A program made the position numbers and the translations under genes. The notes beneath the pieces are model-generated. The model ran no database searches and was not told where the DNA came from. It worked only from the letters and a program-made list of their open reading frames with translations. A DNA stretch of 64,000 bases from Psammoneis japonica. Its lineage: Eukaryota. Numbering within the stretch: position 1 is the first letter of the stretch; every line of letters starts with the position of its first letter. The stretch covers positions 1 to 64,000 of the forward strand of contig QPGO01000138.1 in assembly GCA_008632985.1 (NCBI GenBank). The letters run 5' to 3'. Of this stretch, positions 1,201-59,500 are shown one piece after another.

Positions 1201-2919
1201 GACGCGGCCAAAGGGGTGGGGCGCCACACCTTGCCGGTATTTTGCAAAGTAGTTTCCGATTTGCAGGGGTAGGTGGGCCAAAGTGTCAAGCATGCACTCA
1301 GTATCGCATCATGCATGTATTCAATCATTGCGTCCATTGCTATTTTGGATGCCTTTGCTGAAGAACATATACTCATAAAATAGCTATAGAATTACAGACC
1401 ACGACGGCTTTGCTTTTCGCCCATTTTATTGAATTGGGAGTGCTTCTTTTCACAAGTACGGGAACTCCACACTTTTAGATGCTCTACGCAAGTGTTATCA
1501 AGTAAGCGACGTAGAGCGTTGTGTTAGACATGTCGCTTCACGGTTCAACTGTTCTTCTCTGCACTGAGCCTCGGATTCAACCCCGTTCCATTCTACAATC
1601 ATTAGAAAGTCCAGCAGCCAACACTTTGCTGTTGGTCTACACTGCCAGATGCCAACATGGGAAGAATGTACTAATGCATTGCAACTGGGGTCACAAAATG
1701 AGAATGGGCACTGTCCAAGGTGCGAAGGCATTGATGATTCACCCACACACCCACACACACACAAGACACACAGACATGTGGGGGCAGGAGAGCAAAAGCA
1801 ATGAAAACTCAATTCAATCCACGCACAAGACAAGAAAGGCAACTTGATGTCAAAGACCCATGTGGTTGGATCATCCCCTACACTGACAATGCAATTCCCA
1901 GACAGATGAATCAAATCCATTCTTCCACAAACTTTCGGACTTCATGTGAATTTTGCAAGATGCTTTGCACCGGCAATCTTCCAGAGTTGTGCCATTTGAT
2001 CCCCCCTGACCCCAACACAAGATGGTCTTGGGCAGTCTCCATGTTTTTTGTTGCTTTGGCACTGCAGCTTGTTGGGAGATAAAAGCCAAGCTCTCAATGA
2101 AACACTTGCCACCGTGCAGATTTGCAATCTTCTTCTGTTCTTGTCCACAGACAAAAATCACTTGATCATTCCCCAACAATGCCTGGCAAGCACTGGGCCA
2201 GGCCCAGCAGAGGGATCACACAACCCCAAAGTCTAGGAACACAGCAAACAGAAGATGGCCAGACTCACAGCACATTTTCCATGTTGAAAAATGTCCAGGG
2301 GTTCTTGCCACCTGCCGTGTGGATTTCTGAGTCACGAACAGTGATTCGCGGGCCAAAAAATGATCTGAGATTTGTTTTTTCAACAACAAAACAACAACAC
2401 AGTGAAGAACAGGGCTTCATGGCACTGTTTGGATGCCATCATCTCAAGCATGGTGTCAACGACAGTTTTTGATGCTTTTGCATTGGCAGAGATTTCCTCA
2501 TGGAAATGCAGCACAATTGTGCACAGAAAATCAAAAAATCTTGCACTTGGGTGCACATTGTCACATGTCATTTTTCTCAACAAAACACTGCTCTTTGTCA
2601 GCATTTCTCAACAGCACAACCTCAACAACTGATCCTGTGCAGCAAAAAGCTGCTGTGTCATTGTGCCGTGCATTGCATCTGTGCTGCGCCAGCCACTGGA
2701 ACACCACCTTTTGAAAGCAATGCAGAGTGCAGAGCAATGAACAACTGAGATGGATGAGATCCAATCAGTTGCAAGAATTGGATCTGTCAAAACAAAGCCG
2801 CTCTCAACAAATTTTGTGCTGTCACCATGAGAAGGTTCCATCCAGCACCATCCGGGCAATCTGCTGAAATGTGCCATTTCAACGGAAATGAGCGAACCCC
2901 GGATGTGAGAGCTGTTGAG

Positions 2920-3790
2920 CAGTCTTGCACTGAGCCTTTCTTGAGGTTCTTGAAGTGGCAATCTTTGCTGTTTTTGACAATCAGGTGCATTGTCCACGTC
3001 TCAAATGCAGACTTCTTCATTTCTTTCTGCTCGGTTGCAGTTGCTGCAGCATGCTCTTTTGAGTTTTCAACAAAGCCATCAAGCAACTTGTCACCCAGTC
3101 CTTCCCTCATTGCATTGCATTGGTTCTTGAATCATGACAGACAGTCATTGATCGACTCTTGTTCTTGTTGCTTCACCTCCAATGGGTTCTTGAGCACCTT
3201 GGTCAACACACGGAATGGGTGTCGACCCATCACAGAGTCACACGTCAGGGTTTGGATCAGCTTCAATGGCTTGACAAGATTGTCCCTGATCTTGTCACAC
3301 ACAGGATCTGCCAGCACTCTCTGCCTCATCAGCTTCGTGCACAGCAGTCTTCAAGGAACACAGCAAACCCTCTGTTCTTGTTTTCTTCAAACTGTTTGAC
3401 CTTGCTTCAACAGTCTCCGAGCTCAGCCTTGCATTCACACTCAAGCTGTTTGTTCTCTTTTTCTGCTTCTGGTGATTCCTTGCTCAATGCAGACACTTTT
3501 GGTGTTGGTGTCTCACCTGAAAAATCCATGTGTTTCATGTCTTTGAGTGATTGCACCAGGTGCCTGCCTTGTTCACACTCTTTTTGAATGCAGCGCATGA
3601 TCTTGTTCTTCACATCTTCAAACGTTGCATTGCAAGAGTCACTGTGCATTGATGAAGGACATAACTTCAGTTCAGGGTCAAAGCTCCTGTTGCTGCACGT
3701 CTTCTTCTTCAATCCAGAAGACTTGTGACTCTTGTTGCCACTGCCTGCCTTGACCTTGACTTTGATCTTGGCCTTTCTTGTGCAGATTGT
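2920..3790 (-). mobile_element. Decayed gag of a diatom-type Ty1/copia (CoDi-like) LTR retrotransposon, truncated before pol
   Basis: Broken minus-strand frames ATFEDVKNKIMRCIQKECEQGRHLVQSLKDM / MRQRVLADPVCDKIRDNLVKPLKLIQTL..GRHPF..KQQEQESINDCLS / LGDKLLDGFVENSKEH..MKKSAFETWTMHLIVKNS resemble diatom copia gag once C/H are read as Y; recognised from memory, not searched. Confidence 0.7.
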
Positions 3791-4504
3791 TCAATCCTCT
3801 GCCACTCATTTGTGCAGGCCACTTGATTCCTCAATGAAGGATTGTAGACTTGATTCAGCAAGCTGCACCTTGCACGCTTGCAACTCTTCAGAGTGAATGT
3901 TGAACTGATGGGTCAATGGCGGCAAAAGGGAATCTTGCAAAGCTTCCTCCAATCTTGCTGTGCTCGTCCTGGCTGCTTGTGCAGCTGTGGTTTGCCCAGA
4001 AGGTTGGTCGACACAACTTTGCACACTGGATGGATTTGGTTTTAACAGACACTTCCCAGTGCCGATGACAACAGTTCACACACCAGATGATTCACTCCAA
4101 AGAGTGAGAATGTTTCGTTTTGGGGATGACAGTGTGATGACAAAGAATTTGTCATCATCAGAAGGTCCACGTCAGGAGCCAAAAATCCACCAACTTCAAT
4201 TCATTCTGGGTTCTCCAACACCCTCATTCCAGGTTCTCTAGCAACACCCGCACTTGGCTTGCTCTGACAGCATGAGATGAAAAAAAGGAACAGGAGCAAG
4301 AGACAATGAGCCAAATTGAGCTTTTCTCACTGTCACCTTGCTGTCATTCATTGTGTTTGGAACAGAAGCAGCTGGGCAGCACCACACATGTAAGATTGAT
4401 GATGGCCCAGATGAAAAACCCAGTTGCTGCTTGTCTGCAACACACAGCTTCATCTTTTGAGTGCGCTGCTGACAATGAGTTGATTGGCAGAATTGAAATT
4501 AAAT

Positions 4505-4602
4505 TCCAAGGCTGAGCCAAAATTTGTCAAGCTGGCAAAAGAGTGTGGACATTGGAGTCCAAGGCTGAACTGCAATTTGTCAAGTTGGCAAAGGAGTGTG
4601 GG
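4505..4602 (+). repeat. ~53-bp tandem duplication
   Basis: tccaaggctgagccaaaatttgtcaagctggcaaaagagtgtgg vs tccaaggctgaactgcaatttgtcaagttggcaaaggagtgtgg. Confidence 0.75.
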
Positions 4603-5149
4603 TCACAGTGGAGAAAAAAGGGCATCCAAGTGAATGACTTGTGCTGTGCATCAATTCAAAGCTGAAGATTTGACTTTCAGGTGGAGCCAAACAGGACAAG
4701 AACAGCAAAGCCATCAAGCCACCACTGCTGCTCTGTTAGACAGATTTGTGTTCTTCTGCACTCTTGGACTGACTCCAAGAATGACACAAAAGTGGTGACA
4801 GGCACTTGATTGAATTCAACTCCAGCGTTGAACAAATTGATCTGGAAAAACAAAATTGTGTTTTGCAAGTCAAGCCAAGAAGAATGGAGGCTCCAGAAAG
4901 TTGGGACCTTTTGATGCAATTGTGAGACATGATGGGGTCAACTCAATTGTGTGAAAACTGACATTGACAGCAAGACCTTTTGTCAAAATGTCATGTTTCT
5001 GCCAGGAGAACTCAAAATTTGTTGGTGCACAAGCACTCTGCCAAATCTAGAGCCAGTCTCTGTGTCATTGTCAATGCAAAAAAAGGGTGGAGTCACTGCC
5101 TTTGTGGAACCAACTCAAAACAAAGGGGGGTGCACATTGTTTGTGTGGG

Positions 5150-6010
5150 GGGTGGAAAAGAGGATGATCCTGTGTTCACCAAGAACCCTCAAGATCTGGA
5201 TGTGATTGAGTGACTCCCATTGCTTGATGGCATTGACAAGGACAAAGTTGCTGGACAATTGCCCAGACAAAAAGCATCTCAAGCATCATCTGTTCAGTGC
5301 AATGCCCACCATTGCAAGAACCCAGTGCTTTGTGGCAATGCAGCTCATGCCACCGGCAGTGTTTCTGGGCAAGGCATCAACTCGGCTCTCTCTTGCCGAT
5401 GCATCAGCCTTGTCTGCATGCCTCAACCCCTTCTGGTTGCAGCACGAACAAGGATCAAGGATCCATGGTCAAAGATGCAATCATGCAAGAAGCTCTCTTG
5501 GCACATTCTCAGTCCAAAGTTCCAGAAGGCAAGGCACCGTGGTGTGAGTTGTTCTTTGGCAATGAAAGCAGCACTCCTGTTGGAAAATGGATCTGCTCGG
5601 CGCTCGCCACCACTCAAGATGCCATTTTTCAAGGCAAGCCAGGAATTGGGCACATGCCTCTGCAAACACTCTTGGCATCTTTGTCGACACTGTTTTCTGA
5701 CACTGTTTTCTGACACCTGACGTGATCATGATGGAGACTTTGACACTGCATTTCCCACTCCGGAGGAACGGAATGAGTGCTTGATGAGTTTGCTCAAGCA
5801 ACGCACTGCATGACATGGGGTTGTTTGGAGGTTGAGGCAATCAATCCATGAGACATGCACTGTGCTGTGCTGCTGGAACAACAAGTTGGTTCCCTTGTTC
5901 GAACTGCTTTGTGCTCTTGATCCTTGATTCGCGCTAGAGCGGTTGCTTTCCTCAACCTCTTGCATTCGTCCTCATTGACGGAGTTCTCCAAGACAGATTG
6001 TCTTCCATTT
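5150..6010 (-). pseudogene. Decayed ORF of unknown family
   Basis: Protein-like minus-strand text (KMPRVFAEACAQFLACLEKWHLEWWRAP...LWTENVPRELLA*LHL*PWILDP) interrupted by TGA stops that could derive from CGA. Confidence 0.35.
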
Positions 6011-6265
6011 CAAAATCTTGCAATTAACAGTTGAAAAGCAGGGATTTGAAAAATCCATGCGGGTCTACAATGAGTAGAATTGCACAGTTACACTACGAGA
6101 ACAGATGCTTCGCTCCTTCTCACATAAAACTTTGTGGATCACTCTTATCAACCACATTCTCTCTCTAGTCAGCACCACTCTCCGCGGAGAGAGGTGATCA
6201 GAGTCGCTGAACCGTTGAGTTGAAACAGCCGAGAAACTGAAAAATAAAAAGAGTAACATATTACT

Positions 6266-34728: not shown

Positions 34729-34849
34729 GGGGAGCGCAGGCATGACAGACGTAGCAAAATCTGCTGAGACAAACCGAGTGGGGAGAGGCAGCAACAACAC
34801 TACACACGGAGCGCTTGGACCGTCGACCAGAAGTTTTTATTTTTAGCCA

Positions 34850-35690
34850 CAATGTTTTTGAACTGGAGTGGCTTGTGTTGCGTGCATGGGGCCAACAACA
34901 AGAACTGTGCGAGGTGGGGAGGGGGGGGGGTTGACGAGCCCGCTCCTCATTCTCAGAGCAAAGGAGGAAAAAACCAGAGGGGAGCTGCCAGCTCCTGCAC
35001 CAGAGGAGAGAAGGTGTGTGCTGGGTGTCTCTGCTGAGACATGTGTGTGCTCTGGATGCTCTCTCTGGAGTTGATCACAGTGGGGGCATGGACAAAACAG
35101 AGAGTGTGGGGGGCTTGGACCCAACCATCCTTTGGAGCGCACTTGTTGTCCTTGAAAACAGCACACAGAAGAAGTTGTGGCAGCAAAAATGGGACACTTC
35201 AGCCAGGCTCTCTGTCAACACAAAAGATTCTCTTTGCTGTCATGCTTTGGCCAGGCTCTCTGTCAATGCAAAAGATTCACACTTTGCTGCTGTCATCTGT
35301 CAAGCCCGCTCCCATCCCCAGGTGACGCTCGTTTGCCTCGGGTTCAGACAAACCACTGACCCACGATCCATCATCGACAGTCATTGAATGTCTGGAGTTG
35401 CACTTCTCTGCACATTTGCAGAGCGCAACGACAAAGCAAGAGATGTGAGACAAAAAGTTCATCACTCTGCACATCCTGTGATGTCCATGTGCGCGCGTGA
35501 CAAGGCCTCGCCTGTCAGTCTCCGTCACTTTGTTGATTTGTGTGTTGTGCTTGCTGCCTGTGTGAAACACACTGGATTCAGTTGGTTTGTTTCAGATTTT
35601 GAAGAGAATTGAGAAGAGAAAAAAAGTGGAGCCGGCTCCGCATGACAGTCGAGTTTTTCACACCAGCGCCGCAAAAAAAGGGACCCTCAC
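34850..35690. other. Hypermutated repeat island B
   Basis: TA essentially absent and CG reduced; internal duplication ccaggctctctgtcaa(ca/tg)caaaagattc at ~35203 and ~35251. Confidence 0.7.
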
Positions 35691-36177
35691 GCAAGAGAGG
35701 AAACAAACGATCTGAACTGACCAATGGCGCTCATTGAGAACAAAATGGCAAATGAAAATCGAAACAGCGGTCGGCATTCAGCTGAGAAGCTTCTGGAGCA
35801 AAGCCAACAACCGCCCCCATCAACGACAAGACATCGAAACCAGCACATGTGGAGAACGACGGAAAAAGACACACCACAACAAACGGAGTGCTGCACATCG
35901 TGCTCTCGATGATAATGTTGCACTTAGCACCTTCATAAATGCCGCATCATCTCATACATCATTGTCAACTTCATTCTCGATTCTTGATGATTCTTGAATC
36001 CCGCAAATCCCAAATCCCGGAAATCATCATCATGCGCGATGGCTGTCGCGCACGACATTCCGTGCCTCTCCGTCAACCGCGACCCAAAACGAAACAAAGA
36101 AGGCACGACGCGACTCCTCCCTCCATCCACGACTGCAACTGACAAGCTTCATCATCTCCGTCGTCACATCGGAACCG

Positions 36178-37142
36178 ATGGCTCACCCTTTCACCAACAA
36201 GCACGCATGGGAAGCAAGGGGCGGTGATGCTGGAAACGTGGTGATTCTTACAAGGGGCGGAGTCTCGACGACAGAGGTCAAAATGTCAAAGCCCACCGCG
36301 GAAGCACCAGCAGCTGTTGATTCATTCGCAGGCGCACGCAAAAAGCACAAAATTTCAATCGTGGATCCCATGAACCGATTCAATTCCATGTCTCATGAGG
36401 AGCAGATCGCATCCTTGCCATTTTGTCTTGTTGACAAAGAATTGACGCTGGAAGAGTTCCACGCTCAATGTGATGCTCTCGAAGGCAGCGGGTGCTCTCG
36501 CTGTGAGTTTCGAGACGGTGGTGCCTAGATTTACGAGGCACCACTTGCTCTACATGATGACGCGCGGGAGAAGTTATTGTTGAGCTTGTTAGGCAGATGG
36601 GCGATCGTAGTAGAGATTTCAAGGTCTCGGCAAGCCCCAGGTGCGATAACAATGATGCCAACTGGTCCTTTGAGCCGGATGGATCGCTGAGAATTCGCGG
36701 TTTTCGTCCAGGACCCAACCATGTTGATGCTGCTGACAGCTTAGGAAACCGATGGCCAAATCTCATTGTTGAAATAGCACATTCAGAGACTGAAGAGCAC
36801 GTTCGTGCTAAAGCTTTGGCTTGGTTAGACACAGCTGAGAACCCAGAACATGGTGTTCAACAGGTGATTGTCATAAAGATTGGATATACGGTGCGTGGAG
36901 ATGGCCACAGGACAATGAAAGCTTGGCGGTATGAGCGTGGCGCAGATATCAACCCGGTGCAGGAAATGGAGTTTGGAAACCACGGTCCGAACAACGGGGC
37001 CACTCTACCTGGATCTCCCGGGATGCAGCTCCATGTCCCCATTAGGTCCTTGTACCTCCCGCTTCCACCGCCTGATGAATTGGGCGAAACACTGGATCTT
37101 GATTTATTTTACATTCGGAAAGTGATCGAGGAAGCATTTTAG
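36178..37142 (+). pseudogene. Uma2-like PD-(D/E)xK restriction-endonuclease-fold gene, disrupted (TAG at 36526-36528, frameshift ~36565)
   Basis: EFRDGGA*IYEAPLALHDDA..GEVIVEL, EPDGSL, WPNLIVEIAHSET..VRAKALAWL, VIVIKI match the Uma2-family pattern. Confidence 0.65.
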
Positions 37143-44234: not shown

Positions 44235-45045
44235 TTTCAAAAAATAGAAATACTCTGTCAAAGGTAGGGCCAAAGGTATTTATGGTCTCAACACAGTACA
44301 GTACATGAACTATGACAGCAATCGTATGGCAGCAGAGTTTTCACAGCAGCGCAGACGGCATATTCAAGCACATTGAACATGGTCGGATCCGACGTTCCAC
44401 GACGCGACGTTCCGAACGAACAAACCTGCGCGCGCCGCGCGAGTGTGCAACGCTTTTGAGTCGTGGGCCGGGAGCGAGAGTCGTCGTCGCAATGCACGAC
44501 TCGACTGACGACGCAAGACTTGCAACGATCACCGATGGATGTTGGAATGGATGGTGTGGATGGGATCCAGGATCTAAATCGCGACGCCAAAAAAAACAAT
44601 GCTTGTACTTGCCACTGCACTCAGTGGAGCACTTTAGTGCAAGAACAACAAATGATGAAAACAGAGAAACATGAAGCTGCTGCTGCCACAAGTTGTCAGA
44701 GCCCCCCCCCCAAGGAAGGAAATTTTGCGTCAAGAAAGCGCACACCAAAGCTCTGCAACCTTGCAAGGTGCTGTCAAGACCATGGGCTGCAGTGTTTTTG
44801 GTTGAGCTTCATAACAGTGGGGAGGGCACTCTTGAAACAAATCATGGTGTCGCAGTTTTCAGCAGAGTGAAAAAGCACACGGCAGCTCTCGAGCCTCCCT
44901 GCTGCTTGACACAGCCAGCGCCGCTCTGTCTGGCAAAGCTGCATGCTTTTCCACAGAGCATTTCCAATTGACATGCATCAAACAGTCAATCTAGAGATCA
45001 AATCTGTCTGTGTGCTTTTCTGGGTGTGCCAGTCGTGTCCAAGAG

Positions 45046-45664
45046 CTTGGTTTGGTTTTGCCGCGGGATTCCCCAAAATTCCCCGGGATTGCCACAAGCA
45101 TGATTTCCCAAGGAATCACCATGAATTGCGCTTTGTCACATGCCCATCCCACACATGAACAAAAAATTGTGCATTGGGAATTCCCCGTGCTTCCCTCTCA
45201 TGCATTTCCACACCTTCTGCGTGCCGGGACGCTTGTGTGCAGATCCACACTTTTTTTCCTTCTTGTGTCGTGCGGCCCCAAATGCAAACAACAAGTGCTC
45301 CAGAGCAAAGGATGGGGCACAAATGGAGCTGCATGTGAGCAATGCCAATGTGCGTGATTTAATGGTGAAGTTTGTTCTTCCCTTGCTCTGCCACAAGGGG
45401 CCGTTTTGTGTGTCGATTTGTCGATGCATCCGTCATGGTCGTTGCCCGGCTGGGATGAAAACAAGAAAAAAGCACACCAGCCTAACCCAAATCAAACGGG
45501 AATTGCCGCAATGCACTTGTTTTTTGTTGCCCTCCCCAAGCCCTTTTAGTCATTCCTTCCTGCCAAATTGCCCTCATTTCCCGGGTGTTCCCCAAAAGGG
45601 TGAGGCAATTCCCCCTTGCCCTTGCCATTTTGGGGAATCCCCAAATGGACAAAACCAAACCAAG
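45046..45664. mobile_element. Non-autonomous TIR DNA transposon (MITE-like, 619 bp) with target-site duplication
   Basis: Perfect 15-bp TIR cttggtttggttttg (45046-45060) / caaaaccaaaccaag (45650-45664), second 15-bp inverted block gggattccccaaaat; flanking direct repeat tccaagag at 45038-45045 and 45665-45672. Confidence 0.8.
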
Positions 45665-45799
45665 TCCAAGAGCAAGCACTTCTTGTTTTGTGTGCTGCAG
45701 AGCAGCCCCCTGCCTTTTCTCAAGGGCTGCTTGTGCAGGACATGAGTTCACTTGGAGTTTGATGCTTTTGCAACCATCTGTTTCTGCCATTTGGGAAAA

Positions 45800-47700
45800 G
45801 CCCTCAAAACAAACAAGAAAAGAAGTTCTTCAGCAGCGCAGCTGAGGCACCAGAGAGCAGTCCTTTGCAGAAGCCATGCCTCAGAAAAGAAATTGCAAGA
45901 AATGTGAGCTGGCAAACCTGCCAACGTTCTGCTTCAAACTGAAAAGGGTGTGAATCTTGCAAAATGTGACATGGTGTGGTTTGAAATGACAATGTTCAGC
46001 ACCGCTGCACTTTCATTGGGAAAGGGATGCTGTGTTGATTGGGGTGTGCAAAGGCAGACAACTTCCTCCATGACATCCTGCATTTTGCACCCCCAAATCC
46101 TTGCTTCATTGACCCCCTGGAGAAGGACACTGACAGTGTTGCTCTTCAAGAAAAAAACCAGTTGAGTGTGCCACAGAAGATGCAAACCATGCATTGGGGG
46201 CACAGATGCTGATGGCACAGATCCAAAGAAGCTCTCACTGGCTTTCCTCCAGTTTCCTTTGACAGTGAATCTCAGCATTCAATGTGCTTGGCTGCCCCAT
46301 CAGTCTGCACAATTTTGCTGGAGATGTGAAGATGACGTTGCTGCTTGAAGAGCTTGAAGAAGTGCAATGTTTTTTGTTGACTGTCTGTGATCGTGCACTT
46401 TGCTCATGCAAGCAAGGGATGCAAGACTCATCATTGAAATGACGGGGAGTCAAGAAGAGACCTTCACAAATGTGCTTCTAGACAGCATTCGCCTGTTGAA
46501 GCATGTGGCAGCTCCACAATCAAGCCATGCTTGATTTGTTCAACAAGCCAAGGTCTGTTTTCACGAGCTTACAAATTCAATGGAGTTGCGGTGCCACTGT
46601 GCAAACCTGTTCCCGGCCATTCCATCTTTGCAAGAGATTGACAACAGCTCAAAGAATTGGCACACAACAAGTCAATGAAAAGTGCACACACTTGTTTTGC
46701 TTCACAAATTCATCTCCTCCTCACACAACTGGCACTCTGCCTTGAGAAACTCAGGGTGCATCAGCGCAAATTGTTGAAGCAGCAAGAGTTTTTTCAGAGG
46801 ATGCCTCAGCAACCACCCATTGCCTCGGTCTTGACCAAACTTGTTTTCACAATCTTGGGCATCTTCCATTGACAATGGAGCATCCAAGAGCAGTGTGATG
46901 GGATTGCCTTTCTGAAAACAGCACCCAGGTGGCCATCCACAAAGCTTGGACTCACATTGAATGCCTTCCCCATCATGAGCCAACTTTTTGATTTGCCTCA
47001 TGGTTTGTCCTGAGTTGTCCTTGCAGACTCCATCATGTTTCAAAAGAAATTCCTGCATGAAAAAGGGAAAATTTGAGCTGATGATGACTGAGAAAGCAAG
47101 TGTGCAATGACTGCATGCCTTCATCTTGAACAAACAGTGATCAACAACACTTTTGCCAAAGTTTTGCTGCAAGGATTTCTTCTGTTCCTTGAAGAGGTCC
47201 CAATCTTCTCATTTCAAGGTGCTTGACCTCCTGCTTTTTCATTGCCTTGGCTCCTCCTCCTCTTCAATGATGGAAAAGATTCCTTGGTGTTCTGGGAGAC
47301 ATGTTTTGAATCATCATCATTGTCAAATGACAGCCAGATGAGAGACTCACTGTTCTTCTGGAGCCACCACTTTGATTTACAACTTGTTTCAGGTTCGATT
47401 GTCCTGGGATGCTTTTTCTTTGTTGGTGTCAGCTGTGGCCCCCCGATTGGTTCCAGGCCCAAACTCTTCAAGTGTTGTTCATTTTGTGCAATCCAAACAC
47501 AAGTCGTTGCTTCTCACATTCACTGAGTTCATGCTGATCCATCTCATTGTTGATGTCCTCAAAACACTTGTTCTCTGTCTCTCTGAGTGTCTCTGTCACA
47601 ATGATTTGACAGAAAGGAGGGCATTGCCACTCAAGGGAGGGCACAATCCAGTTCATCAGCAGAAAAGGCTGATGTTGGTGAGAGTGGAGAGAGAGAGAGA
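45800..47700 (-). pseudogene. Large decayed ORF of unknown family (possibly TE-associated)
   Basis: Consecutive protein-like minus-strand fragments (47471-47214, 47172-46702, 46453-46235, 46278-45934), Tyr-free and C/H-rich. Confidence 0.35.
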
Positions 47701-47712
47701 GAAAGAGAGAGA
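47686..47712 (+). repeat. (GA)n microsatellite
   Basis: ggagagagagagagagaaagagagaga. Confidence 0.8.
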
Positions 47713-48675
47713 ATTTTGTCACAAATTAAAAATGCACTCCCAACTCCCAACCAACACAAATGTCATTTTCTCCTGCCAACATCATGACTCTCATCTCAAT
47801 GCAACAGCCAGCAACAAACACAAAACTGGGAGTGCAGAAGTGGCCACGTGTCCCCCATGTTGCTGGTGGGTGCACGTGAGGCTGTCTTGGACATTGTCCA
47901 CAATGCAAACATGGTGGAAGGCTCAAGGTCAATGACACACACCCCAACTTGGTTTTCTGCCCAGCAGGGCACTGTGTTGGTGAGCTGCCAGCTGACCTGT
48001 CCACTTTGTTGCTTTGCAGCAGAAGTCTGTGTGCATCAGCTGATGGCCCTTTTAGCTTGTTGCATTGCACAGATCTTCAACCTCACTCCCAGGCATTGCA
48101 AGCAGCTTTGCTGTCACACTCTCACTGACTGTGGGTGTTCATGCTGGGAGATTCATTTGAAGTGGGTGGAGTGCAGCACACATGGCTGTTTGTGTGCTCA
48201 AAACATGCACCGGCTCTCACAAACTTGCTGAGTTGTTGTCAGAGATCAATTTCACACATGGCTTGAGGCAGGCACAAACAAAAGCTTGTTTGCACAGGAC
48301 ATCAGAGAAGAAGATGAAGCTTCTGGTGGAAAGCAGCCATGTGTGGCCCACTGAGTGACCAGAGCACATTGGACAAATGAGTGGGTGCATTTCTGAGCAT
48401 GTGGCTCTAAACACTCTGGCCCTGATTGTGGGGCAAAATGTCTTGTGCCAGCCTTTGATGATGCCACCAACAAATGAGTGCAAAACATTGCAGCAGAGCA
48501 TTGGTGCACAAGCAACTGCATCCCCACGGCTTGCTCCTGGGCCAGCTTTTGCTTGAACAAACTTTTAAGCAAGGGCACTTGTGGCTCACATTTCAAAGAA
48601 AGCAAAGAGTGGAGGACTCTGCTTTGCTGCAATGGGCACTCTCTCATTGTTTTTTTTAGAACTCTTGCATCTTCT

Positions 48676-48755
48676 TGCTGGTTTGGCCATGGCAACAGCA
48701 TTGCTTGCCATGTGTCCTGTTTTGTTGCTGGTTTGGCCATGACAACAGCATTGCT
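48676..48755 (+). repeat. Short tandem duplication
   Basis: ttgctggtttggccatg(g/a)caacagcattgct twice. Confidence 0.75.
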
Positions 48756-50954
48756 CTCTTCCCGTTTGTGTGGTGCACATGTTCAAACCATGGCTTTTGC
48801 AAACATTTGGCTGCTCCTGCTGGTTGGTGCCACACCTGCTGCCAAAAAAACCCATGCTGGGTCAATCTTGCTTTGTTTGGCAAGGTCTTTCAGCAAGCAC
48901 TCAAGGATGTTAATTTCTCATTTTCTCCAAAAACTCATGCTGAGTCATTTGGAGCAGATTTGGTGCAAATTCTGCTGCATTTTTGGGGAAGGTGAATGAT
49001 TGAAATGAACTCTTGTGTGAAGAAAGGGGGGCAAAGCACTGGCACTTTGTGCAGACAATGGGGTTTGAGGTGGAAATGTGGCCATTGAAGTGTGTCCACC
49101 CACTTGGTCATTTCACAGTCATGTCCTGCAAAACCTCCCTGATCACAGCTGTTTGTGGCAAGATGTGGTGCCAGAGGCATTTGGACAAAGTGGTGTGATG
49201 TGGGCAAAAATTGGGTGCCCCACACCAGGACCCAACAGAAACAGGTGCTGATTGCCACATGCAATGCACTGGCATTGAAGCATGGCTCTTGGCAAAACAA
49301 GGAGTTGCTGCAGATTCCTTGCCACCACCTTGGCTTGGCCACAATCCTGATGACATGTCACAGTGCACAGCCACCAAATGGTCCAAACAATCACCAACAC
49401 ATGAACATGTCTGACACACAGAGCATGTGCTGCAGCATGTTGCTCACAATCCTCTCCTCAACTCATGTGCTCTTTTGACATTGCATCTTTTGTGGAGCTG
49501 CAATGTTGACAATTGACAACATCAACACAAGGTGAAAATCCAAAGCCATTGATGCAGGTGCAGCTTGTTTGTTGTTTTTTAACCCCACATTTTTTCAATG
49601 CCCAACTGACCAGTGTTTTGCCTTCTCTTTCACTTGGATCCCCCAGGCATCAGCCTTGCTTGTGTGGAGCTCTGCTTGAGAAATGAGGAGCGCAGCATCA
49701 TGTTGAAACTCTCAATCTTTGAGACATCTCTCTTGACACAGATTCTTTGGAAATGGCTGCATCTCTTTTGGGAGACAGGCACAAAAGAGTTGACTCATGT
49801 TCAACAATCCATTGCCAGAGTTGTCAACTCACTCTTGACAAATGACAACCTTGGGTGCCATGTGTTGGAGAGGTTTCACAACAACCTGCCCTGTGTCATT
49901 GGCAAGATGCTGAAGGATTGCTTCATCCCAAGCATCTTGTTGCCTTGCAAACTCAGTCCAAAGATCTGCTGCTTTCCTTGCAGCCACACCACATGGTGCA
50001 TCTTGTGGCCACACCCATTCTTTGCCAGCATGGCAGCAAGTTTTGGGAGCTCACACTTGCAAGTTTTGCCATGCAACAACAACTTGCTCTCACTGTCATG
50101 TGCATCTGTGTGGCTCTTGCTGGTTGTGGGTTTAGAGGCTTTGATGTTGTTGGGGCACAGATCAAACCTGGGTGGACCCACCACTGGGCCATTGTCATCC
50201 TCATGTCAATGCCCCCCTCTGGCACAAACGCTGAGGGCATCATTTCTTTCCTCAGCACAGGAGCACTTGGTTGTTGGCTCACCCACATCTTTGCAGTGCT
50301 CCTCTGCTTGCTTCTTTGCTGTCATCATGACCATGATGGCAATTTGTGGGTTTCCATTTTGCAGGTCCTCCTCCTCCTCCTTCTCCCATTGCTTGCCTCA
50401 CACATTGAGCTTTGCACTTTGATGCAGCCCGGCCTTTCTCTGCCTTTTTGTGAGTGCTGAGTTTCTTCATTGTCTTTGATGTAAGTGCAAATGCAAGACA
50501 TGTGGCAATTGATTGTGTGTTGTGGCAACACTGAGCACCTTGAGTTGCAAGAGCAGAGAGGGGTTGCTCAGACCCCATGTTGGCCAAGACATTGTCAGCA
50601 CTGCCTGTTTAAAAAGCAATGCTTGTCTTCACATGCAGAGCAGCTGTGATTGCAATCAAACTTTGGCCAGGGTCTTGCAAGCCAAATGAGACATCCTCAG
50701 TGGACAGCTGAGTGTGCAGCGAACCACTGGCACACACAGCAATTGCGCTTCTGTCTGGAAGCCCAAAGAGCATGAGCTGTTTTTTTTTTTTTTTCATGGA
50801 AATGGTGCAAATCCTCCTCCACATGTGCACTCTGCAGGAGTTTGCACTTGCCAAGCAAAACTGGCAAAGTTGCTTCACCACCCATGAATGACAGCACTCT
50901 GCTCAACAAACAAGTTGCACCATGTGTGGCACCTGCACTCAACATGAATCACTG

Positions 50955-51560
50955 CCTGTCTGCCCATCTCTCTTTGCTTGGCATTGGCAATCATTGCATG
51001 GAATTGACTCCAAGTGGGGCTTTCTAAAGTGGTGAGAAAAAAGAAGAGTGAAACCTGACTGGAAAAGGAAGCAAGAAGCAGACAACTCTGGCAAGAAGCA
51101 AAGCATTTGCTGCTTTGGACAAGCTCAGAGGAAAGCAAAGAAGTGGAGCTCAGACACAAAGATGAGGCAACAAAACAGAAAGACATGCCCTTGCAAGCCA
51201 CTGCAAAGATTGCAAGCAATCCACACCACAACATTGTCACCTGGTCAAGCTTGCCTGTCATTTTTCACAAGGATCCCATGGTTTTGAAGCAAGCAACAGT
51301 TGCAGGCAATTTTCCATTTGCCAGCCACAAGTTTTGAAATCAGCCCTTTAAAAGGTGTCACCAGACACTTTTGAGAACTGTTGATTGGCTGCACTCAAGG
51401 CCTGTGAAAGGGACCTTTTGATGGAAAGAATTTCAGAGAGTCTTTTGTGGACATCCAAGGGTGATCACACACCCCTTCTCCTCCAACAAGCAGATGATTT
51501 TTTTCAGTTGTTTGCCCTGCCTGAGTCATTTGCAAACAAGATTTTTGGCACACCTTGGGA
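50955..51560 (+). pseudogene. Hypermutated, internally deleted paralog of the adjacent 52.3-kb gene
   Basis: Collinear with 52262-52770 (e.g. KDEATKQKDMPLQA..KDPMVLKQATVAGN..AALKACERDLL vs KDEVTKQKDASLQA..KDPMVLKQATVAGN..AALKACERDLL). Confidence 0.85.
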
Positions 51561-52355
51561 TGCACTTTGACTTTGTGAACAAGGATGCTGTGCCGCTCAA
51601 AAGTGTCTTGTTCTCTGTGCAAAGACAACAGCATCTGTGTCTCAATCACGACTGTCCTTCACTCTTTTGCAGCACACGAGTGTCTTGGGCAAAACAATCA
51701 TCTCTGGCAGATGTCTTTTTTTCTTAAAGCAGCCACAAGTTGCACTGCCTTGTTGCTGCATTGGGTGCTTCAGGACCACACAGCAGCAAACACACAACAG
51801 CTCTCCAGGAAGGCAGGCAGGCGCCCAAGTTTCGCACAAGTGCTGCCCTTTTTGCAGCCACCCCCAGCACACAGTGGCACATGGCACAGAGGGGCAGTGT
51901 CCTCAAACCAGCAGACTTCAAGCCCAGCCACTCTCTACGGCAGAAGGGTTACACGCCATAATTGTTGGCACAGCGAGCACCAACCGCAATTGTGGCGCTG
52001 ATCCGTCCTCTCTCGATTTTCACAAAAATGCTGCAAATCTGTCCAAATCCGCTTAACCGTGCCACTTTCGACGCGACCTGACAGATGGCCAGACTGTCAT
52101 ACTACCGGTGCCGGCCGTGCGTGCCGGGCGGTAAGAAGCTCCCGCGCGCGCTGAGCGCGCGACATTCCGTTGCTTTCTGATTTGAGATTCCAGATTTTTG
52201 TCGTTGTTTTCGAGTTGTTCTCATGCCACTTATTTCCCTAACCACTAAACTGCTGCAATCGTTGCTGCCCCATCTCATCCTTGCTTCACATCCGCAATTG
52301 GCTGTTTGGAATTGACTCAGAGCGGGGCGTTCTAGAACGGCGAGAAAAAACAAGA

Positions 52356-54106
52356 ATGCAACCCGACAAGAAGAGGAAGCGAGTGGACGACGACTCTGGC
52401 AAGGAGCAAAGCCGTTCGCCATCAGCATCTACTCACGAGCTCGAAGACTTGCTCAGGCAGAAGGAAGACGAGCTCAGAAGGAAAGAAGAGGAGCTTAAAC
52501 TCAAAGATGAGGTGACAAAGCAGAAAGACGCATCCTTACAAGCCGCCGTGAAGATCATATGTGATCCATCCCCTCGTCATTTTTCCTGGTCCGACTGGCC
52601 TGTCGTTTTGCGTAAGGACCCCATGGTTCTGAAGCAAGCGACAGTGGCAGGCAATGCATCAGTTTTTCGATCAAACGTTTCAAAATCAGTTCTTCAGAAG
52701 GTGTTGCCAGACATGCTTGAGAACCATCGATCGGCTGCGCTCAAAGCCTGTGAAAGGGATCTCTTGAAATGGGAAGAAGTGAATCCCACTGCGGATGAAT
52801 GGCGCGAATCGATGCCTTTATCCGTGAAGGCGTTGAGGCATGGCATGGTGGGAGACATTGCCGATGTGCCCCTCTTGACGAATCCAATTTTGGCCAATGC
52901 GTTGAAGGAAGGAAAAGTGGAGTGGAATCGCATTCCAGCGCGTTTGCAAAATGACGCAGAATTCTGTTGCCTCGTGCTTGACCCGAATGGAAACCATGAT
53001 GTTGAAAACTATGACTGTCGCCATTTTTCGTACGGGTCCAGTTTTCACAATGTTGTGATGAACATTTTTGACCGTTTTCCTTGCCTTTCTCAAGATCGCC
53101 AGGTTTGGGAAAATGTTTTAAGCTCTTGTTCAACTGCCGTTCTTGGTCTTTTCCAGGAAGAGCGCTTGCCACCCTTTCGGGATCTTGTGGAACGCGCCTG
53201 CGATGAGAATTGCGATCTAATTGAGTGCATTGATCAGACATCATTTGAGGATGTCGTTCAGATGGTGACAAACAAAGATTCAAACTGCCTCTTCCGTGCG
53301 TCTGCAGAGTTCATTGAGTCGCATCAGGACTTCGTGACCGAAAAGCTCAATGACGTGCACATTCATGATGTTGGTCGGGAAGACAAGGACATCCGCAGCC
53401 GACGTTGTGGGATCGAATTTCTTCAAATGAACATTGAAGTGTTCGCAGGGCGGATTCCAACAGACATGTGGAATGGGGATTTTGGGGCGTCGTGGCTTCT
53501 TAAGGGGCTTCCAATCTTACCACCACATCCAGTCGAATGGAAAAGAGACCATGAGAAGCTCTTGCTGGCAGTGAGGAACTGCCCAGTTTATGATTGGATC
53601 GTGAGATCGCTGCGTTTAGCCCCCGAGCAACTCAGGGGTAGTTCCGACTTTATCAAGGAAGTGATGGAAAGCAACCAATGTCTTTTTGAAGTTGCTTTGG
53701 ATAATTTGCGGAGTGGCGATTACAAATTGGCTATTTGGGCAATGGGTGACCCATGTTTTTTCCGCAAGTGGTCAGAGTCCACACGGAGATGGCAAGAACG
53801 TTCATCCATCTGGGCACGACTCCTTTGTTGACGGCAGAGAGATTTGGAGAATGCCTGAGTCGCGCTAAAGAGGAAACAGAAGCTCAAGAGAAATTTGAGA
53901 GAGAATTCGTAGGGGCGGCTTCTGTTGATGCCGAGCTGAGAAGGATGCCGAGAGATGTTCTAACGATCATAGAGGATTTCGCGGGGATTGCCAATGGCGA
54001 ACCTCTCCGCAACATTCGGAAAACAGTGAAGCTCATTGACGAGATGAAAGCCGCTGCTGCCGCGAACCAAGGCCGTGGTGACACGACGAGAGCGGTTGCT
54101 TCGTAA
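52356..54106 (+). CDS. Lineage-specific DUF4116-like repeat protein; frameshift around 53750-53830
   Basis: Long ORF with repeats such as IPARLQNDAEF, PVEWKRDHEKLLLAV, APEQLRGSSDFIKEVM; C-terminus continues in ORF 53753-54106; ATG at 52356. Confidence 0.55.
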
Positions 54107-54599
54107 TTCGCAGATGTTGTGCCACAGGGGGAACCAGTGCAGTGCTCGTTGTACAAAGCATTTGATTTTGTAGCGGAAGCCCACTTGCACCGATGATTCA
54201 ACAAAATAAAGCATTGCTTTTTGTGTGTCCTTTTTGCCAGTTCAATGCACCTCCCTTGCTCTTCGAATGCATCCAACACTGGCAGAATGCCGCACGACTC
54301 CAGCCGAGTGAATGGCACTTTAAACCAAAAGGCGATGCATCTCGCGCCATGCGATTTCCCATGTGAGCATTTCTCTTTCGAACAACCCATTCGATCGCGC
54401 AAGCAATTGGCCGTCAAATGCAACGAACGAAAAGCAGGCAAGCAGCCAACGCAGAACTGTTCGGATGTTTTCGGGGTGAAGATGCACCCGCACCGAAGAA
54501 ATTGTACATCTCGTCATTCAACTTAAAGTGTCTTTGCCCTGCATCCTCTGGGGGGAACAACCGCCGCATCTCTCACTTCAGCCCTTCTCTCACGCATCG

Positions 54600-57500
54600 G
54601 GACTTTCACCAAATGCTGGATCTCTCATTTCAGCCCTTCCCTCACGCATCAGCTTGCACCGAATCATGTTCTTGGACATGGTCCAAAACAAGCTGCCCCA
54701 TGCAAACAAAGTCAGACAGTTCCAGATGCACCTGTGCAGACAACCTTGTACAGCACATTCCACTTGTTGGTTCTTTAACTGCCAGCATGCACATGTTGTG
54801 CTGTTGCAACATGTGTTGCTGAAGATTGGACACAACAGCAATGTTTTGTGTTGGCAGACCAATGTTGATCATAAACTCCTCCATCTGCTCTGGGGCTAAC
54901 AAAGACACATTCCACAATTCAAAAGTCCACTGGTGACTTTGTGGGACACACTGGCAATGCCATCTTTGCTCTCAGGCACCAACGCATGGCATGCAGATGC
55001 CCTTTGGCTCAGCTGTGTGCTTGGGGTGGCTGCATGATGGCTGCAGAAATTGACATTGGGCACCTCTGCTTTGATCATCCTCAGCACCCCTGTTGTCAGA
55101 ACATCTAGATCACAGACATTGATGACAACCTGGATCAGTTGAAGAAAAGACAGTTGGCTTCTGACATGACTCACTGAGTGCAACACATTGGGAAAGAAAT
55201 TTCTCTTTGCAGTGAATCATTTGGTTTGCACAATTTGTCATTTGGTGTCAGTGGGTGCCTGTTGTCATGCAAGTTTTGCAGTTTGCACTGTGCCACAGCA
55301 TCCCACAGCCATTGCAGCTCACCAAGGCAAGTGCATTGAATGGTGCAGGAAGCCCAGAGGATTTCCTTTTGGCAACATTGACTTGCCAGCTCAGTGCTCA
55401 CTCCAAACAGTCACCATCACTGCACTCAGTGCTCACATGTGTGTTGACCTGCACTGAGTCAGCTGAATGCCTGCACTGTGAGTGGCAGCAAGAGGAGAGG
55501 CAGCAGGAGCAAAACAGCCAAGGCCAATGATGTTGCAGTCTTCTCAGAGGTGACAAGAGCCAAAGCAGGTGCTCCAACAAGAACAAGATCATGACCAAAA
55601 CAAAAAGCACTTTCAGCCTGAAACAATGGAGTTTTGTCATTCATCAATGAAAAGCAACTCTTGAAATGCAGCATTCAACGGCTTCAAGAAAAAGGTTTTT
55701 TGATGCACACTGAAGGAAGATTGCCAAGGCATGCATTTGGCAAGGTCTTTGGACATGAAATGCAAGGATTTTGGTGCTGAGAAGGACCAAGATGATCACC
55801 ACTGGTGCAGAAAAGGAACATGACCAAGGCATGCATTTGGTGAGGTCATGCTGACATGTGGTTTTTGCCGGAACAATGACCAGCAATGACAAAGCAGTCC
55901 TGGAAACCACATGAGAGCCTCCAAGGGCAAGGCAAAACACGCAAGTGACAGCTGCACAGAGTCTTGCAAGAAACAAATGATCAGCGTTGGTCAAGCTTTG
56001 CCAAGGGCAGTCTGCAAAGGATGACACCTGGCAACCCAATCACCATTGATGGCTGTTCCATTGCTGGTGGATTTTCCAATTTTCCAGTTTTGGTGATGTG
56101 GTGCAAAAATGGATTTCCATGTGGTTTTGCATGTGCAGCTTTGCACGAGGATTTGCACTGAGTTTCATGGTGATCTCTTTTGTTGCACACACCTGCTCTA
56201 GCTGGAGTGCACACTCTGAGCTCAAAGCTGAAAAAAACCCAAACAGCTCTTTTGTTCTGTGCATCAATCAATGCAACACAATGGGTGCTCAAGGTGGCAG
56301 TGTGGTCCTCCACAGCATTGCCTCCTTTTCCATTGCAAATGTTCTAAATGCTGCAAAGCATCTGTTGGAGGTTTGGCAATGCGGTGGTCTGCCAGCCATT
56401 GCTGGTGTTGACTCCAGTTGGATTGGTCTGAGGGGGCTTGCTCCTTTGGCGGCAACATTGTTGCACACCCTGGGCCAGGTGTCACATCACTTGTGAATGC
56501 CAGTGTTCATGCAACAATGGTGTTTGACCCCAAGACTTGTCATCATGCAAAAGTTGCATCAATCAAGCAGGCTGGGGAGAGGGAGACGGCTTGTGCAGCA
56601 AAAGCCCAGAGTGCCGTGCATGGCTTGAAACCTCAGAGATCACCTCACAACTGTGGAAACCAGATGTTGTGGAGGCGTGTTGGGTGCATTCATTGGAAAG
56701 CAGAAAACTCTCCAATCAAAAGTTAAAGCTTGTGAAACACAAGGATCAAAGAAGCTTCCTCCAGACTTTCACTTGCTTGTCATCAAGGAAGCACCTCAAT
56801 TGCAGCCATCAAACTCAGTTCTTTGCATGACAGGAGACTTCCAGGCAGATTCAGTTGCTGTTTTGCAACTCAGTTTGTCACTGTGAAGCACAGATTGTGA
56901 TGGGAAATGACTCAGAATTTTCTTTCATTTGTGAAGAGCGGTTCTGATGTGATTTCTCCATTCTCCTTGTGCTCTCCTTTGTCACCTGCTTCTCTGGCCC
57001 TGCCCTCTCTGGGGCAGGTCTTCAGGGGGGGGGGGCAAGGGCTTGAATGTCCAACTCACGGAGGGCGTTGAGCTTTGGTGGAGTGGGCAATGAAGCTGAG
57101 CCACATGTGGACATTGATCATGCAGAGCTTGAGGAAGCTGTTTCCCCAGACCCAGGTGCTCCTTTTGCTGCTCTTTTGTCTTTGGCATGTGGCAACCAGG
57201 ACTGGGCTCCATGAGTCAGCAACTTTGTTGTGACAGGAGATGATGAGGGAGCACCCCCCAAGGTGTTTCTGAAACAAGGGCAGAAGACACATTTCCTTTT
57301 TTCTGATGCACCCAGCAATGACTGCAGCATCATCATGGTCAAAAATTTGACAGACTTGTGGGCCCTTTGTCATGATGGTGGTGTGATGCATGAAGCATTG
57401 CAGGCAGGCAAAGGCCAGATGTTGTGTCTGTGGCAAAGTCTCTGCCAGCCATGCATGTGCAGCTGTGATTTCAATCCCTTTCAACAATCAACAGCTCCAG

Positions 57501-59170
57501 TCATTTGACTTCTGCTTTGCACCAACATGTCAAAGCATGCTTGGAAGAGAATGTCCAGGGAGAGCAAAGTTTCAAACAAGCAAAAGTTGTCAGAGATCCC
57601 TGTGTCTAAGCAGGAATGACATGATCCACTGAGACCCCTCCCCCCAATGGGAGAATCGTGACCCCAGTGAGTCTGGGCACACTGTTTTGCTGGTGAACAG
57701 TGCAGTGGTGTGTTGTTGCTGCCACCTGGCATGCAGGAGGGACAATGGCATCCACTCAATGTGTCTGCCAAATGCCAGAAAAACAAAATCCGTGCAACAT
57801 TCTTGGTGAGCATGTCGCTGCAGTTGGCAGAGCAATGTCGTTGGGGTCCATGGACAAGAGAAATGGACCGGGAGTCTTCCAGAATGTTTTGGTGTTGCAG
57901 CATTGTTCCAAAGACAAGGACAATTTGCTGGGAGTTGCAAGGGCAGTTCCCACAACTTGGGCATCTGGGGAAGGAGTGGGAGCAGATGAGAGGTGGCAAG
58001 GCCATCAGCAACAGCATCCAATGTGGAAGTGATGCATTCCGTCACTGCAGGACTTGGATCCAATGGAGTGGGAGCCATGGTTGCAGCCAGAGAAGGCATG
58101 GATGAATGATGTGTTCTCCGAGTTCCTTCTGGACCCCAGCAACTGCACAATGAGCAGCTTCTGACACATTGGCAGCTGTTTTAATGTGACCGGCCGCCTG
58201 CACCTGGGCAGCATCATTCTGAGAGATAAGTTTTGGGCTTGGAGGCCGTCCAGTTGATTCCCAAGTGCATCCACGAGACGGTCCTTTGCAATGAATCTTG
58301 CCTCAATGCTGGTGGCGGATGATGGGACCGCAGCTGAGGAAGTCAAAGAATTCATGGTGACATTCTCACAGTCTTCGAGGATGTCTGTCATGGCAGTTGC
58401 AACAGCGAGACCATTCTGAATTGTTTGCTCAGCGGCCATCATGGTGGTGTCCAGAGCCGGGCAAGAGTGAAATCTGAGTCATCTGCCTGTTGTCTCACAT
58501 TGGTTTTTTAATGCAAGCCTGGAACTTTTTTGTGTGGATCGACATGGTCGCCCACAGCACGGATGGCATCCGAGGCAGCATGTTCCCCAATCAATTGGTC
58601 CATTCAGCCACAAAGGATGCCACAATGGAGTGAGTGGTGGTCGTTGTGGTGCAGATGCATTCAAGCATTGCAGCATCCACAGCTTTGTAGACTGGGACAA
58701 TTTTCTTGTCCAGAGCCGCAAGAAATTGAGCATCTCATGATGCCAGAGCTTTGTTCACCGCATTGCCGGCAAGGGCAATGGCTTCAGTTGCAGAGCAGCT
58801 TCCAGCAAGCGTGGCGGCAAGCGAGGTGGCGCCGTTTGCACTGGTTGCTCTGATGTGGAGTCTGCCGGAGGCATCGGAGGGGGTGTCACTCCCTCTTCTG
58901 GAGCTGCATCAGGTGCCTCAGGAGTTGCTTCAGCCTCAACAGCATCCTCTGCCATTGGATGCGCATGAGAGGTGTCTTGGTGGCCTCGACCGTTTTGGCA
59001 GAGCAGTCAGGTGATGGGGGATTGCGGCCGCTGCAGGTGGGGCAGTGACCACTGGAGTGCCATCGGCCAACTTTGGTGAGAGGGTGGCCTGAAGGGACGA
59101 CAGAGCAGCCCACCACAAGGACGCCATTTTCGAACAAGTGCTGTTGACAGGCGCCATGGTGTTGGACAAT
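54600..59170. other. Hypermutated repeat island D containing decayed ORFs of unknown family
   Basis: Very few TA, CG-poor core, protein-like minus-strand fragments at ~54230-55200 and ~58000-59160. Confidence 0.8.
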
Positions 59171-59500
59171 GAAAATAAAAGTCGTTGCCACAATGCGACG
59201 CCATAGAGAACGACGGACAAACGATGTGACGTGTGAAGACATACAGACAGTACGGTGTCAGAGTCGCTACCGGTATCGCGTAGGTACTGGTACAGGCTTT
59301 ACGGGCATTTCTGTTCACGTTGTGCGTAGTTTGCTTTTTGTGAAGAAGGCAGACGAGTAAACGAGTAACGAAGTGTAGTCTAACGCGAGCACAACATCAC
59401 GTCGAACAAGCTGATAGGCCCTACGACCTGTTGATTGAACAAAACAAAGCAAAGCGAGTCGTCCACAACGTTGGGCAACAAACAAATCCTCCCATCAACC

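Follow-up and report, generated by a model that had tools for sequence, protein, structure and literature searches.

Flanking bases shape the survival of TA dinucleotides in TA-poor tracts of a Psammoneis japonica contig

Hypermutation restricted to TpA has been described in the alga Bigelowiella natans, where integrated giant-virus and virophage DNA is affected (Mettrop et al., bioRxiv 10.64898/2026.01.13.699255). The main text of this 2026 preprint describes the dinucleotide only and gives no flanking-base preference; its authors also propose the deamination of adenine to hypoxanthine, the chemistry considered below (10.64898/2026.01.13.699255). It is the one description so far of a mutator that erases TpA from repeats, from an alga distant from diatoms, and its main text names no enzyme. 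A literature search for TpA hypermutation of transposable elements in diatoms gave no description among the matches listed. Here, a stretch of 64,000 nucleotides from the diatom Psammoneis japonica (assembly GCA_008632985.1, contig QPGO01000138.1, positions 1 to 64,000 of the forward strand; hereafter the window) was analysed. It contains five tracts poor in TA, and the few TA that survive in them are strongly biased in their flanking bases. This flank fingerprint is what is new, in a kind of mutator that was first described only very recently.

As far as the main text of the preprint allows comparison, the two cases share A:T>G:C transitions restricted to TpA, with TpG or CpA as the product according to the strand, their localisation to particular non-host-like DNA and the TpA depletion left behind. 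Loss of TpA with gain of TpG and CpA, and sharply bounded tracts, are both found in the window. Unlike in Bigelowiella, mutation here falls on old repeat or non-genic tracts, on a small inverted-repeat element and on a member of a gene family, in another lineage; in three of the five tracts CpG has decayed as well; and the process is known here from its outcome in the sequence, not from mutation followed in real time. Repeat-induced point mutation (RIP) of Neurospora and other ascomycetes converts CpA to TpA and raises TA and A+T content. As in RIP, dinucleotide-specific transitions riddle repeated DNA in sharply bounded tracts; unlike in RIP, TA is destroyed and CA/TG gained, and the base composition of the tracts holds at 48% G+C because the TA and CG losses offset each other.

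Tract boundaries were set by a two-state segmentation on TA density over the 64-kb window, which gave five tracts totalling 19,462 bases (Table 1); the remaining 44,538 bases are the background, or genic, DNA in all comparisons. Densities are 3-6 TA per kb across the tracts and 22-44 outside, with 3.2 per kb in tract 44362-51935 against ~35 in genic DNA. The edges are sharp, TA being already at 38 per kb within 250 bases outside them, and no gradient of the context bias was seen beyond the edges, where one was looked for. In 1-kb blocks TA reaches 0.01-0.09 of expectation, CG 0.02-0.4 and TG+CA 1.6-2.0. Observed/expected ratios in tracts and background are 0.05 vs 0.53 for TA, 0.31 vs 1.0 for CG, 1.75 vs 1.18 for CA and 1.70 vs 1.11 for TG. 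AA/TT is not depleted (1.24-1.27 vs 1.18) and AT is barely shifted (0.85 vs 0.92). The depleted dinucleotides are thus TA and CG only, and all others bar the gained CA and TG are unaltered; among dinucleotides containing A the loss is limited to TA, i.e., to a T directly 5′ of the target A.

Within tract 44362-51935, the interval 44641-51900 (7260 bases) retains 21 TA against ~497 predicted from base composition (TTAA 8, TTAG 4, CTAA 3, CTAG 2, TTAC 2, ATAA 1, GTAA 1). Seventeen stand in YTAR (Y, pyrimidine; R, purine), the context in which neither strand reads TAY; four, two TTAC and two RTAA, have TAY on one strand; and none is RTAY, with TAY on both. This recount matches exactly the tally on which the original prediction had based its rule, that the target is the A of TAY. 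The YTAR share has a binomial p of 1.2e-7 against 0.25 and of 1.5e-10 against the genic share of 0.165. In the four tracts outside the rule-forming one, 21 of 38 TA are YTAR (p 5.7e-8 against 0.165, 6.6e-5 against 0.25), including 18 of the 28 in the other two large, CpG-poor tracts. All tracts together hold 40 YTAR, 17 one-sided and 5 RTAY sites (n = 62), and the background 266, 856 and 485 (n = 1607; chi2 92.5, p 8e-21); at more than 400 bases inside the tract edges the counts are 32, 13 and 3. The YTAR-rich bias of the survivors is hence confirmed, and other tracts of the window replicate it.

Apparent survival relative to genic density is 0.34 for YTAR, 0.045 for one-sided sites and 0.024 for RTAY; YTAR is itself depleted, as the original prediction had noted. 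By tetramer, survival is 0.63 for TTAA, 0.27 for CTAA/TTAG, 0.24 for CTAG, 0.08 for ATAA/TTAT, 0.07 for GTAC, 0.06 for GTAA/TTAC, 0.03 for CTAC/GTAG, 0.01 for both ATAG/CTAT and ATAC/GTAT, and 0 for ATAT, so that the loss is unequal across NTAN contexts, in line with the prediction. There is good support for slower loss at YTAR.

The bias departs from three null expectations. The genic background predicts 16.5% YTAR where 40 of 62 are seen; the formation of new TA out of neighbouring dinucleotides would give 24% for transition weights from 1 to 10 (chi2 54-59, p <= 1.4e-12); and among all pyrimidine-purine steps in the tracts, 23.7% have Y..R flanks (binomial p 1e-11). The flank classification is robust because all conversions are transitions, which never alter the purine or pyrimidine class of a flank. 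These figures bear on the possibility that the tracts inherited their bias from DNA rich in TTAA, CTAG and TTAG. In its favour, genic DNA of the window serves here only as a stand-in for the starting sequence of the tracts, and the low YTAR share of genic TA goes with an under-representation of TAA and TAG as stop codons. However, the conversion-proof flanks of the pyrimidine-purine steps are not enriched to match, survival at TTAA relative to ATAT is far higher than any plausible difference in composition would give, and the same bias would be needed in five unrelated tracts, which makes such an inheritance hardly credible. Selection keeping stop codons on both strands was also considered and set aside as implausible at 3 TA per kb and with no detectable coding capacity. 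A Pfam scan of 109 open frames of >=80 residues from four tract regions (1900-6100, 34800-36100, 44600-51950 and 54300-59000) gave no convincing match, the sole match having an E value of 0.009.

The TA now present could alternatively have arisen later, once erasure was over, through a context-biased process, for example C>T at CAR. No steps are commoner in the tracts than TG and CA, a transition away from either makes TA, and some contigs of a DNA run matched to the window have CA where the window has TA, e.g., at 45547. Nevertheless, a context-neutral inflow predicts 24% YTAR where 65% is seen, and an inflow making TAR on the mutated strand only would give about as many YTAR as one-sided sites and no RTAY, in place of the 40, 17 and 5 counted. 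Even at a steady state of inflow and removal, flank-dependent removal is still needed. Late arrival is therefore a very unlikely source of the bias.

Loss was described by an additive model with one rate per strand, determined by the base that follows the A on that strand. The rates k (95% bootstrap intervals in brackets) are 0.29 (0.05-0.53) for TAA, 0.92 (0.61-1.24) for TAG, 2.06 (1.66-2.66) for TAC and 2.55 (2.0-3.44) for TAT, so that the ranking of loss is TAT >= TAC >> TAG > TAA. The background used for these intervals, for the GTAC fit and for the product correlation and residuals given below lacked segment 1-1672, with an effect of a few percent. The four-rate model improves on a single rate with a likelihood-ratio statistic of 79.9 (p 3e-17). 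A model of purine against pyrimidine (69.2) far outperforms one of A against the rest (51.3), which indicates that the rule distinguishes TAR from TAY and not merely TTA/TAA; within the +1 purines, A is more protective than G. The rate ratio of pyrimidine to purine is ~4 under pure decay and ~8 under a steady state of inflow and removal. Trinucleotide densities in the CpG-poor cores, as fractions of those in genic DNA, are 0.01 for TAT, 0.03 for TAC, 0.11 for TAG and 0.19 for TAA.

The +2 base, on which the original prediction is silent, contributes as well. Its addition to the model gives a likelihood-ratio statistic of 41.2 (3 degrees of freedom, p 6e-9), A at +2 being protective; among half-sites with a +1 purine, A stands at +2 in 56 of 97 in the tracts and in 444 of 1382 in the background. 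This effect was found on the whole data set, with no independent replicate. The abundance of A at +2 among surviving TAR half-sites brings the survivor motif close to T-Y-T-A-R-A.

The same model bears on whether the recognised unit is a palindromic, double-stranded RTAY site, as for an adenine methyltransferase of the restriction-modification type whose methylated A would be premutagenic. Survival is indeed lowest at RTAY and highest at YTAR. But a palindromic site is the poorer fit, since the survival of one-sided sites is near that of RTAY and far from that of YTAR, additive half-sites predicting 0.06 for them; moreover, their products are strand-biased, as described next, and the effects of A, G, C and T at +1 are graded. 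We attach very little weight to a palindromic site.

Survival depends on the sum of the rates of both strands, hence a rule in which the A of TAY is mutated and its mirror, in which A is mutated when a purine precedes the T (the A of R-T-A) whatever its 3′ neighbour, predict identical survivors, and orientation must come from the products of the loss. At YTAY and RTAR sites, the TAY rule yields YTGY and RCAR and the mirror rule YCAY and RTGR. YTGY+RCAR products outnumber YCAY+RTGR by 1325:887 in the tracts, compared with 1875:1593 in the background (Fisher p 1.6e-5), and the product difference per 500-base bin is 11.8 in the tracts vs 3.0 in the background (Mann-Whitney p 1.3e-7). Among six independent flank contexts, all four one-sided ones carry the sign predicted by TAY; in A..G/C..T and C..C/G..G, the CpG asymmetry derived from CpG survivors points opposite to the predicted product sign. 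Survivor-derived rates predict the product differences with r 0.87 and lower the residual sum of squares from 32,851 to 9,125, and adding the CpG asymmetry to the prediction brings it down to 4,611. In the one-sided contexts, TGY/RCA products exceed CAY/TGR products by a net 317, where the loss of TA is estimated at 330. The corresponding alpha is 0.98 (0.81-1.16), or 0.91 (0.74-1.08) with the CpG asymmetry subtracted, and none of 1000 bootstraps gave an alpha <= 0.5. Taken as an orientation test, the TG-minus-CA skew of tract bins was no larger than in the background (standard deviation 1.2 vs 1.3), and the 19 survivors in skewed bins showed no clear pattern.

Direct events come from the one paralog pair that a self-comparison of the window found, between 50955-51420 and 52242-52790. 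The six TA of the gene copy that can be aligned correspond, in the mutated copy, to CA in three cases, TG in one and TT in one, and one is kept. Of the four changes cited in the original prediction, TTAC>TTGC and GTAA>ACAA were found and TTAT>TTGT and GTAG>GCAG were not located. Both one-sided events, TTAC>TTGC and GTAA>ACAA, agree with the TAY rule and contradict its mirror. The mirror rule accounts for the survivors exactly, and the products in CpG-rich tract bins are not asymmetric in either direction; its expected excess of YCAY/RTGR is nonetheless the reverse of that seen, as are the signs in all four one-sided contexts, and we hold it to be improbable. TAY is the best supported orientation, moderately supported and not yet secure: the proposal that the A of TAY is the target is partly supported, in that loss at YTAR is low and the TGY/RCA products favour it, whereas the survivors from which it was drawn fit the mirror rule equally.

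Several observations weigh against these conclusions or limit them. All the evidence rests on 62 surviving sites in 19.5 kb of tracts in one window, and in the two small CpG-normal tracts YTAR accounts for 3 of 10 TA, which is not significant. GTAC survives more often than the additive model allows (4 seen, 0.9 fitted). With respect to orientation, the confidence intervals of single contexts nearly reach zero, and a genic starting composition was assumed for the tracts; alpha drops to 0.70 if the original TA were twice as numerous. CpG decay yields the same TG and CA products and so confounds the product test: in tract bins, the products favoured by TAY become more frequent as CpG is lost (slope -0.43 per retained CG, p 5e-5), the disfavoured ones having a slope of -0.06. 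CpG loss also has a flank bias of its own, a mild TCG preference, the C of TCG being lost fastest among the CpG survivors of the CpG-poor cores (n = 107; k 1.45 vs 0.70-0.97; likelihood-ratio statistic 15.7, p 0.0013). In six CpG-rich tract bins, which lost TA alone, the asymmetry is 3.8 +/- 3.7 vs 3.0 in the background, none of it clear; this difference fits no asymmetry and also, at about 1.5 standard errors, the expected one. Finally, the direct polarised paralog events number only four, one of them the loss of a YTAR site (TTAA>TCAG).

The GTAC survivors lie at 44606, 53031, 54505 and 54749; one is in the open frame 52242-53831, and the other three are no more than ~550 bases from a tract edge.

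Three of the five tracts have also undergone CpG decay. In the other two TA is lost and CpG kept, with 3.0 TA and 48 CpG per kb in 34845-36525 and 5.6 and 55 in 52614-53500; TA erasure can therefore occur without CpG decay, and the two appear separable, TA erasure being probably the faster. No bias by purine or pyrimidine class was detected among the CpG survivors (p 0.40). In the cores of tracts 1673-6024, 44362-51935 and 54208-59175, CpG survival relative to genic density is 0.05 for TCGA and 0.36 for CCGG. A 5′ T is thus favoured in both the A and the C changes, which could reflect coincidence or a shared activity.

On balance, we lean slightly towards a TA-erasing activity that reads one strand, with the fastest loss at an A between T and a pyrimidine, protection by A at +2, and deamination as its likely chemistry. 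The five tracts would be repeat-derived or otherwise non-genic DNA in which TpA has been erased to TpG and CpA by an activity that converts A to a G-pairing base and acts on repeats and their neighbourhood. Such an activity would read beyond the dinucleotide on either strand, removing TAT at least as fast as TAC, TAG several-fold more slowly and TAA slowest, with added protection from an A two bases downstream. A TA would be most durable where each strand has TAR, above all in T-Y-T-A-R-A. The two strands would contribute additively as half-sites, with the products of one-sided contexts on the strand predicted by TAY, and this combination argues for local reading of one strand rather than of a palindromic four-base site. 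The likeliest chemistry would be the deamination of DNA adenine to hypoxanthine, which is read as G, by an enzyme that may prefer T at -1 and a pyrimidine at +1; it appears to be the most economical one. Attack on the T of R-T-A is equally allowed by the data, being the same event viewed from the other strand.

Alternatively, every TA could be hit equally and the bias introduced at repair, for example if hypoxanthine or a G:T pair were better removed before purines. The tracts record only the net outcome, with which all survivor and product results are compatible, and nothing in the data contradicts a biased repair. It is less economical, needing a second context-reading step, and we consider it unlikely; the flank bias would rather arise at the lesion step.

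The proposed deamination can be compared with known adenine-directed activities. The tRNA substrate of TadA/ADAT2 has U33 before the edited A34, and early TadA base editors show a YAC preference. Like TadA and ADAT2-ADAT3, the activity proposed here would give A>G through A-to-I conversion, with T/U before the A, C accepted after it and a single strand read. Unlike them, it has TAT as a target at least as good as TAC (k 2.55 vs 2.06), and its substrate would be chromosomal DNA. Table 1 of a review lists the preferred contexts as 5′-ACG for TadA/ADAT2 and 5′-UAG for ADAR1/ADAR2 (PMC10661471); the G at +2 is unscorable here, as TACG in the tracts is rewritten by CpG decay. The suggestion that the activity is closer to TadA than to Pol eta or ApT methylation holds only in part: TAC is a good target, but TAT is no worse. 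A link to a TadA-type enzyme is a lead.

ADARs, which the same review describes as metazoan (PMC10661471), likewise produce A>G with U/T before the edited A and clustered hyper-editing of repeats. Compared with the contexts tabulated for them, the 3′ preference here is opposite, with k of 0.92 for TAG vs 2.06 for TAC and 2.55 for TAT, and CTAG survives at 0.24 vs 0.01-0.07 in contexts with TAY on both strands. In addition, mutation reaches beyond retroelements, to a small inverted-repeat element and a gene fragment. DNA polymerase eta makes errors at WA motifs, AA included, in somatic hypermutation. It resembles the present activity in producing A>G at an A preceded by T and differs in that AA/TT is not lost here. 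AMT1 and other MT-A70 enzymes deposit symmetric N6-methyladenine at ApT in unicellular eukaryotes, a transcription-linked mark (PMC7145601). This is also an adenine-directed activity at a self-complementary A/T dinucleotide, yet as summarised there its target is ApT rather than TpA and it makes a mark and is not a mutator. With neither AA nor AT lost, Pol eta and ApT methylation are disfavoured, in keeping with the original prediction.

The fingerprint, TAT >= TAC >> TAG > TAA with protection by A at +2, gives a tangible lead to the enzyme. It speaks against routes of the ADAR, Pol eta and ApT-methylation kinds, could be compared with the 231 de novo mutations that the preprint lists for Bigelowiella, and specifies oligonucleotides suited to a biochemical assay. 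It also explains why TTAA, CTAG and TTAG are the leftover TA, which is useful for dating and recognising mutated repeats. A further step, that diatoms carry a DNA-directed adenine deaminase, perhaps an offshoot of TadA/ADAT2, acting as a genome-defence mutator on T-A-Y with not-A at +2, is conceivable but doubtful. If true, it would reveal a natural adenine editor of chromosomal DNA, and the flank fingerprint would serve as an enzyme signature for picking among candidates and for testing identity with the Bigelowiella process.

Table 1. Positions and properties of the TA-poor tracts and other features of the window
Feature	Positions	Strand	Properties
TA-poor, CpG-poor tract	1673..6024		12 TA, 57 CG in 4352 bases; 7/12 YTAR
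Midasin-type AAA ATPase, very large	16980-31612	minus	Several long open frames; normal-composition DNA between tracts
TA-poor tract, CpG near normal	34845..36525		5 TA, 80 CG in 1681 bases; 1/5 YTAR
TA-poor, mostly CpG-poor tract	44362..51935		24 TA, 89 CG in 7574 bases; 19/24 YTAR
619-base element, terminal inverted repeats, 8-9 base target duplication	45046..45664		CpG-rich; 3 TA, all YTAR
Heavily mutated fragment, paralogous to start of frame 52242-53831	50955..51420	+	blastn 69.7% identity, 511 columns; tblastn E 1.5e-27
Open frame of a multi-copy gene family, less mutated partner	52242..53831	+	Weak DUF4116 match; summed contig depth 190-270 vs ~57 single-copy
TA-poor tract, CpG normal, within open frame 52242-53831	52614..53500	+	5 TA, 49 CG in 887 bases; 2/5 YTAR
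TA-poor, CpG-poor tract	54208..59175		16 TA, 84 CG in 4968 bases; 11/16 YTAR

Contigs of one DNA run, matched to the window at 80% likeness, gave 688 differing places, and the 40 of them listed held too few TA events for a mutation spectrum. By summed contig depth, some parts of the tracts are multi-copy. Segment 46002-49336 has a depth of 68-78 against the single-copy baseline of ~57, and its TA erasure is as full as in the multi-copy parts; either present-day repetition is not required, or the copies have diverged beyond 20%.

The inverted-repeat element sits inserted within the already mutated tract 44362-51935. At single places it is matched by 12-26 contigs of the run and is therefore multi-copy; a metagenome scan with its inverted-repeat pattern gave 0 matches. 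Over the open frame 52242-53831, summed contig depth is 3-5 times the baseline, and a metagenome search for relatives of its protein gave 146 pattern matches, of which 0 were confirmed. The protein of 52356-53828 has only two homologues, at ~40% identity, too distant for the inference of ancestral codons. The frame is intact but partly TA-erased, and the heavily mutated fragment near it derives from a second member of the family. The genes of the window encode, besides the midasin-type AAA ATPase, an ATG14-like protein, a 2-oxoacid dehydrogenase E2 and a kinase.

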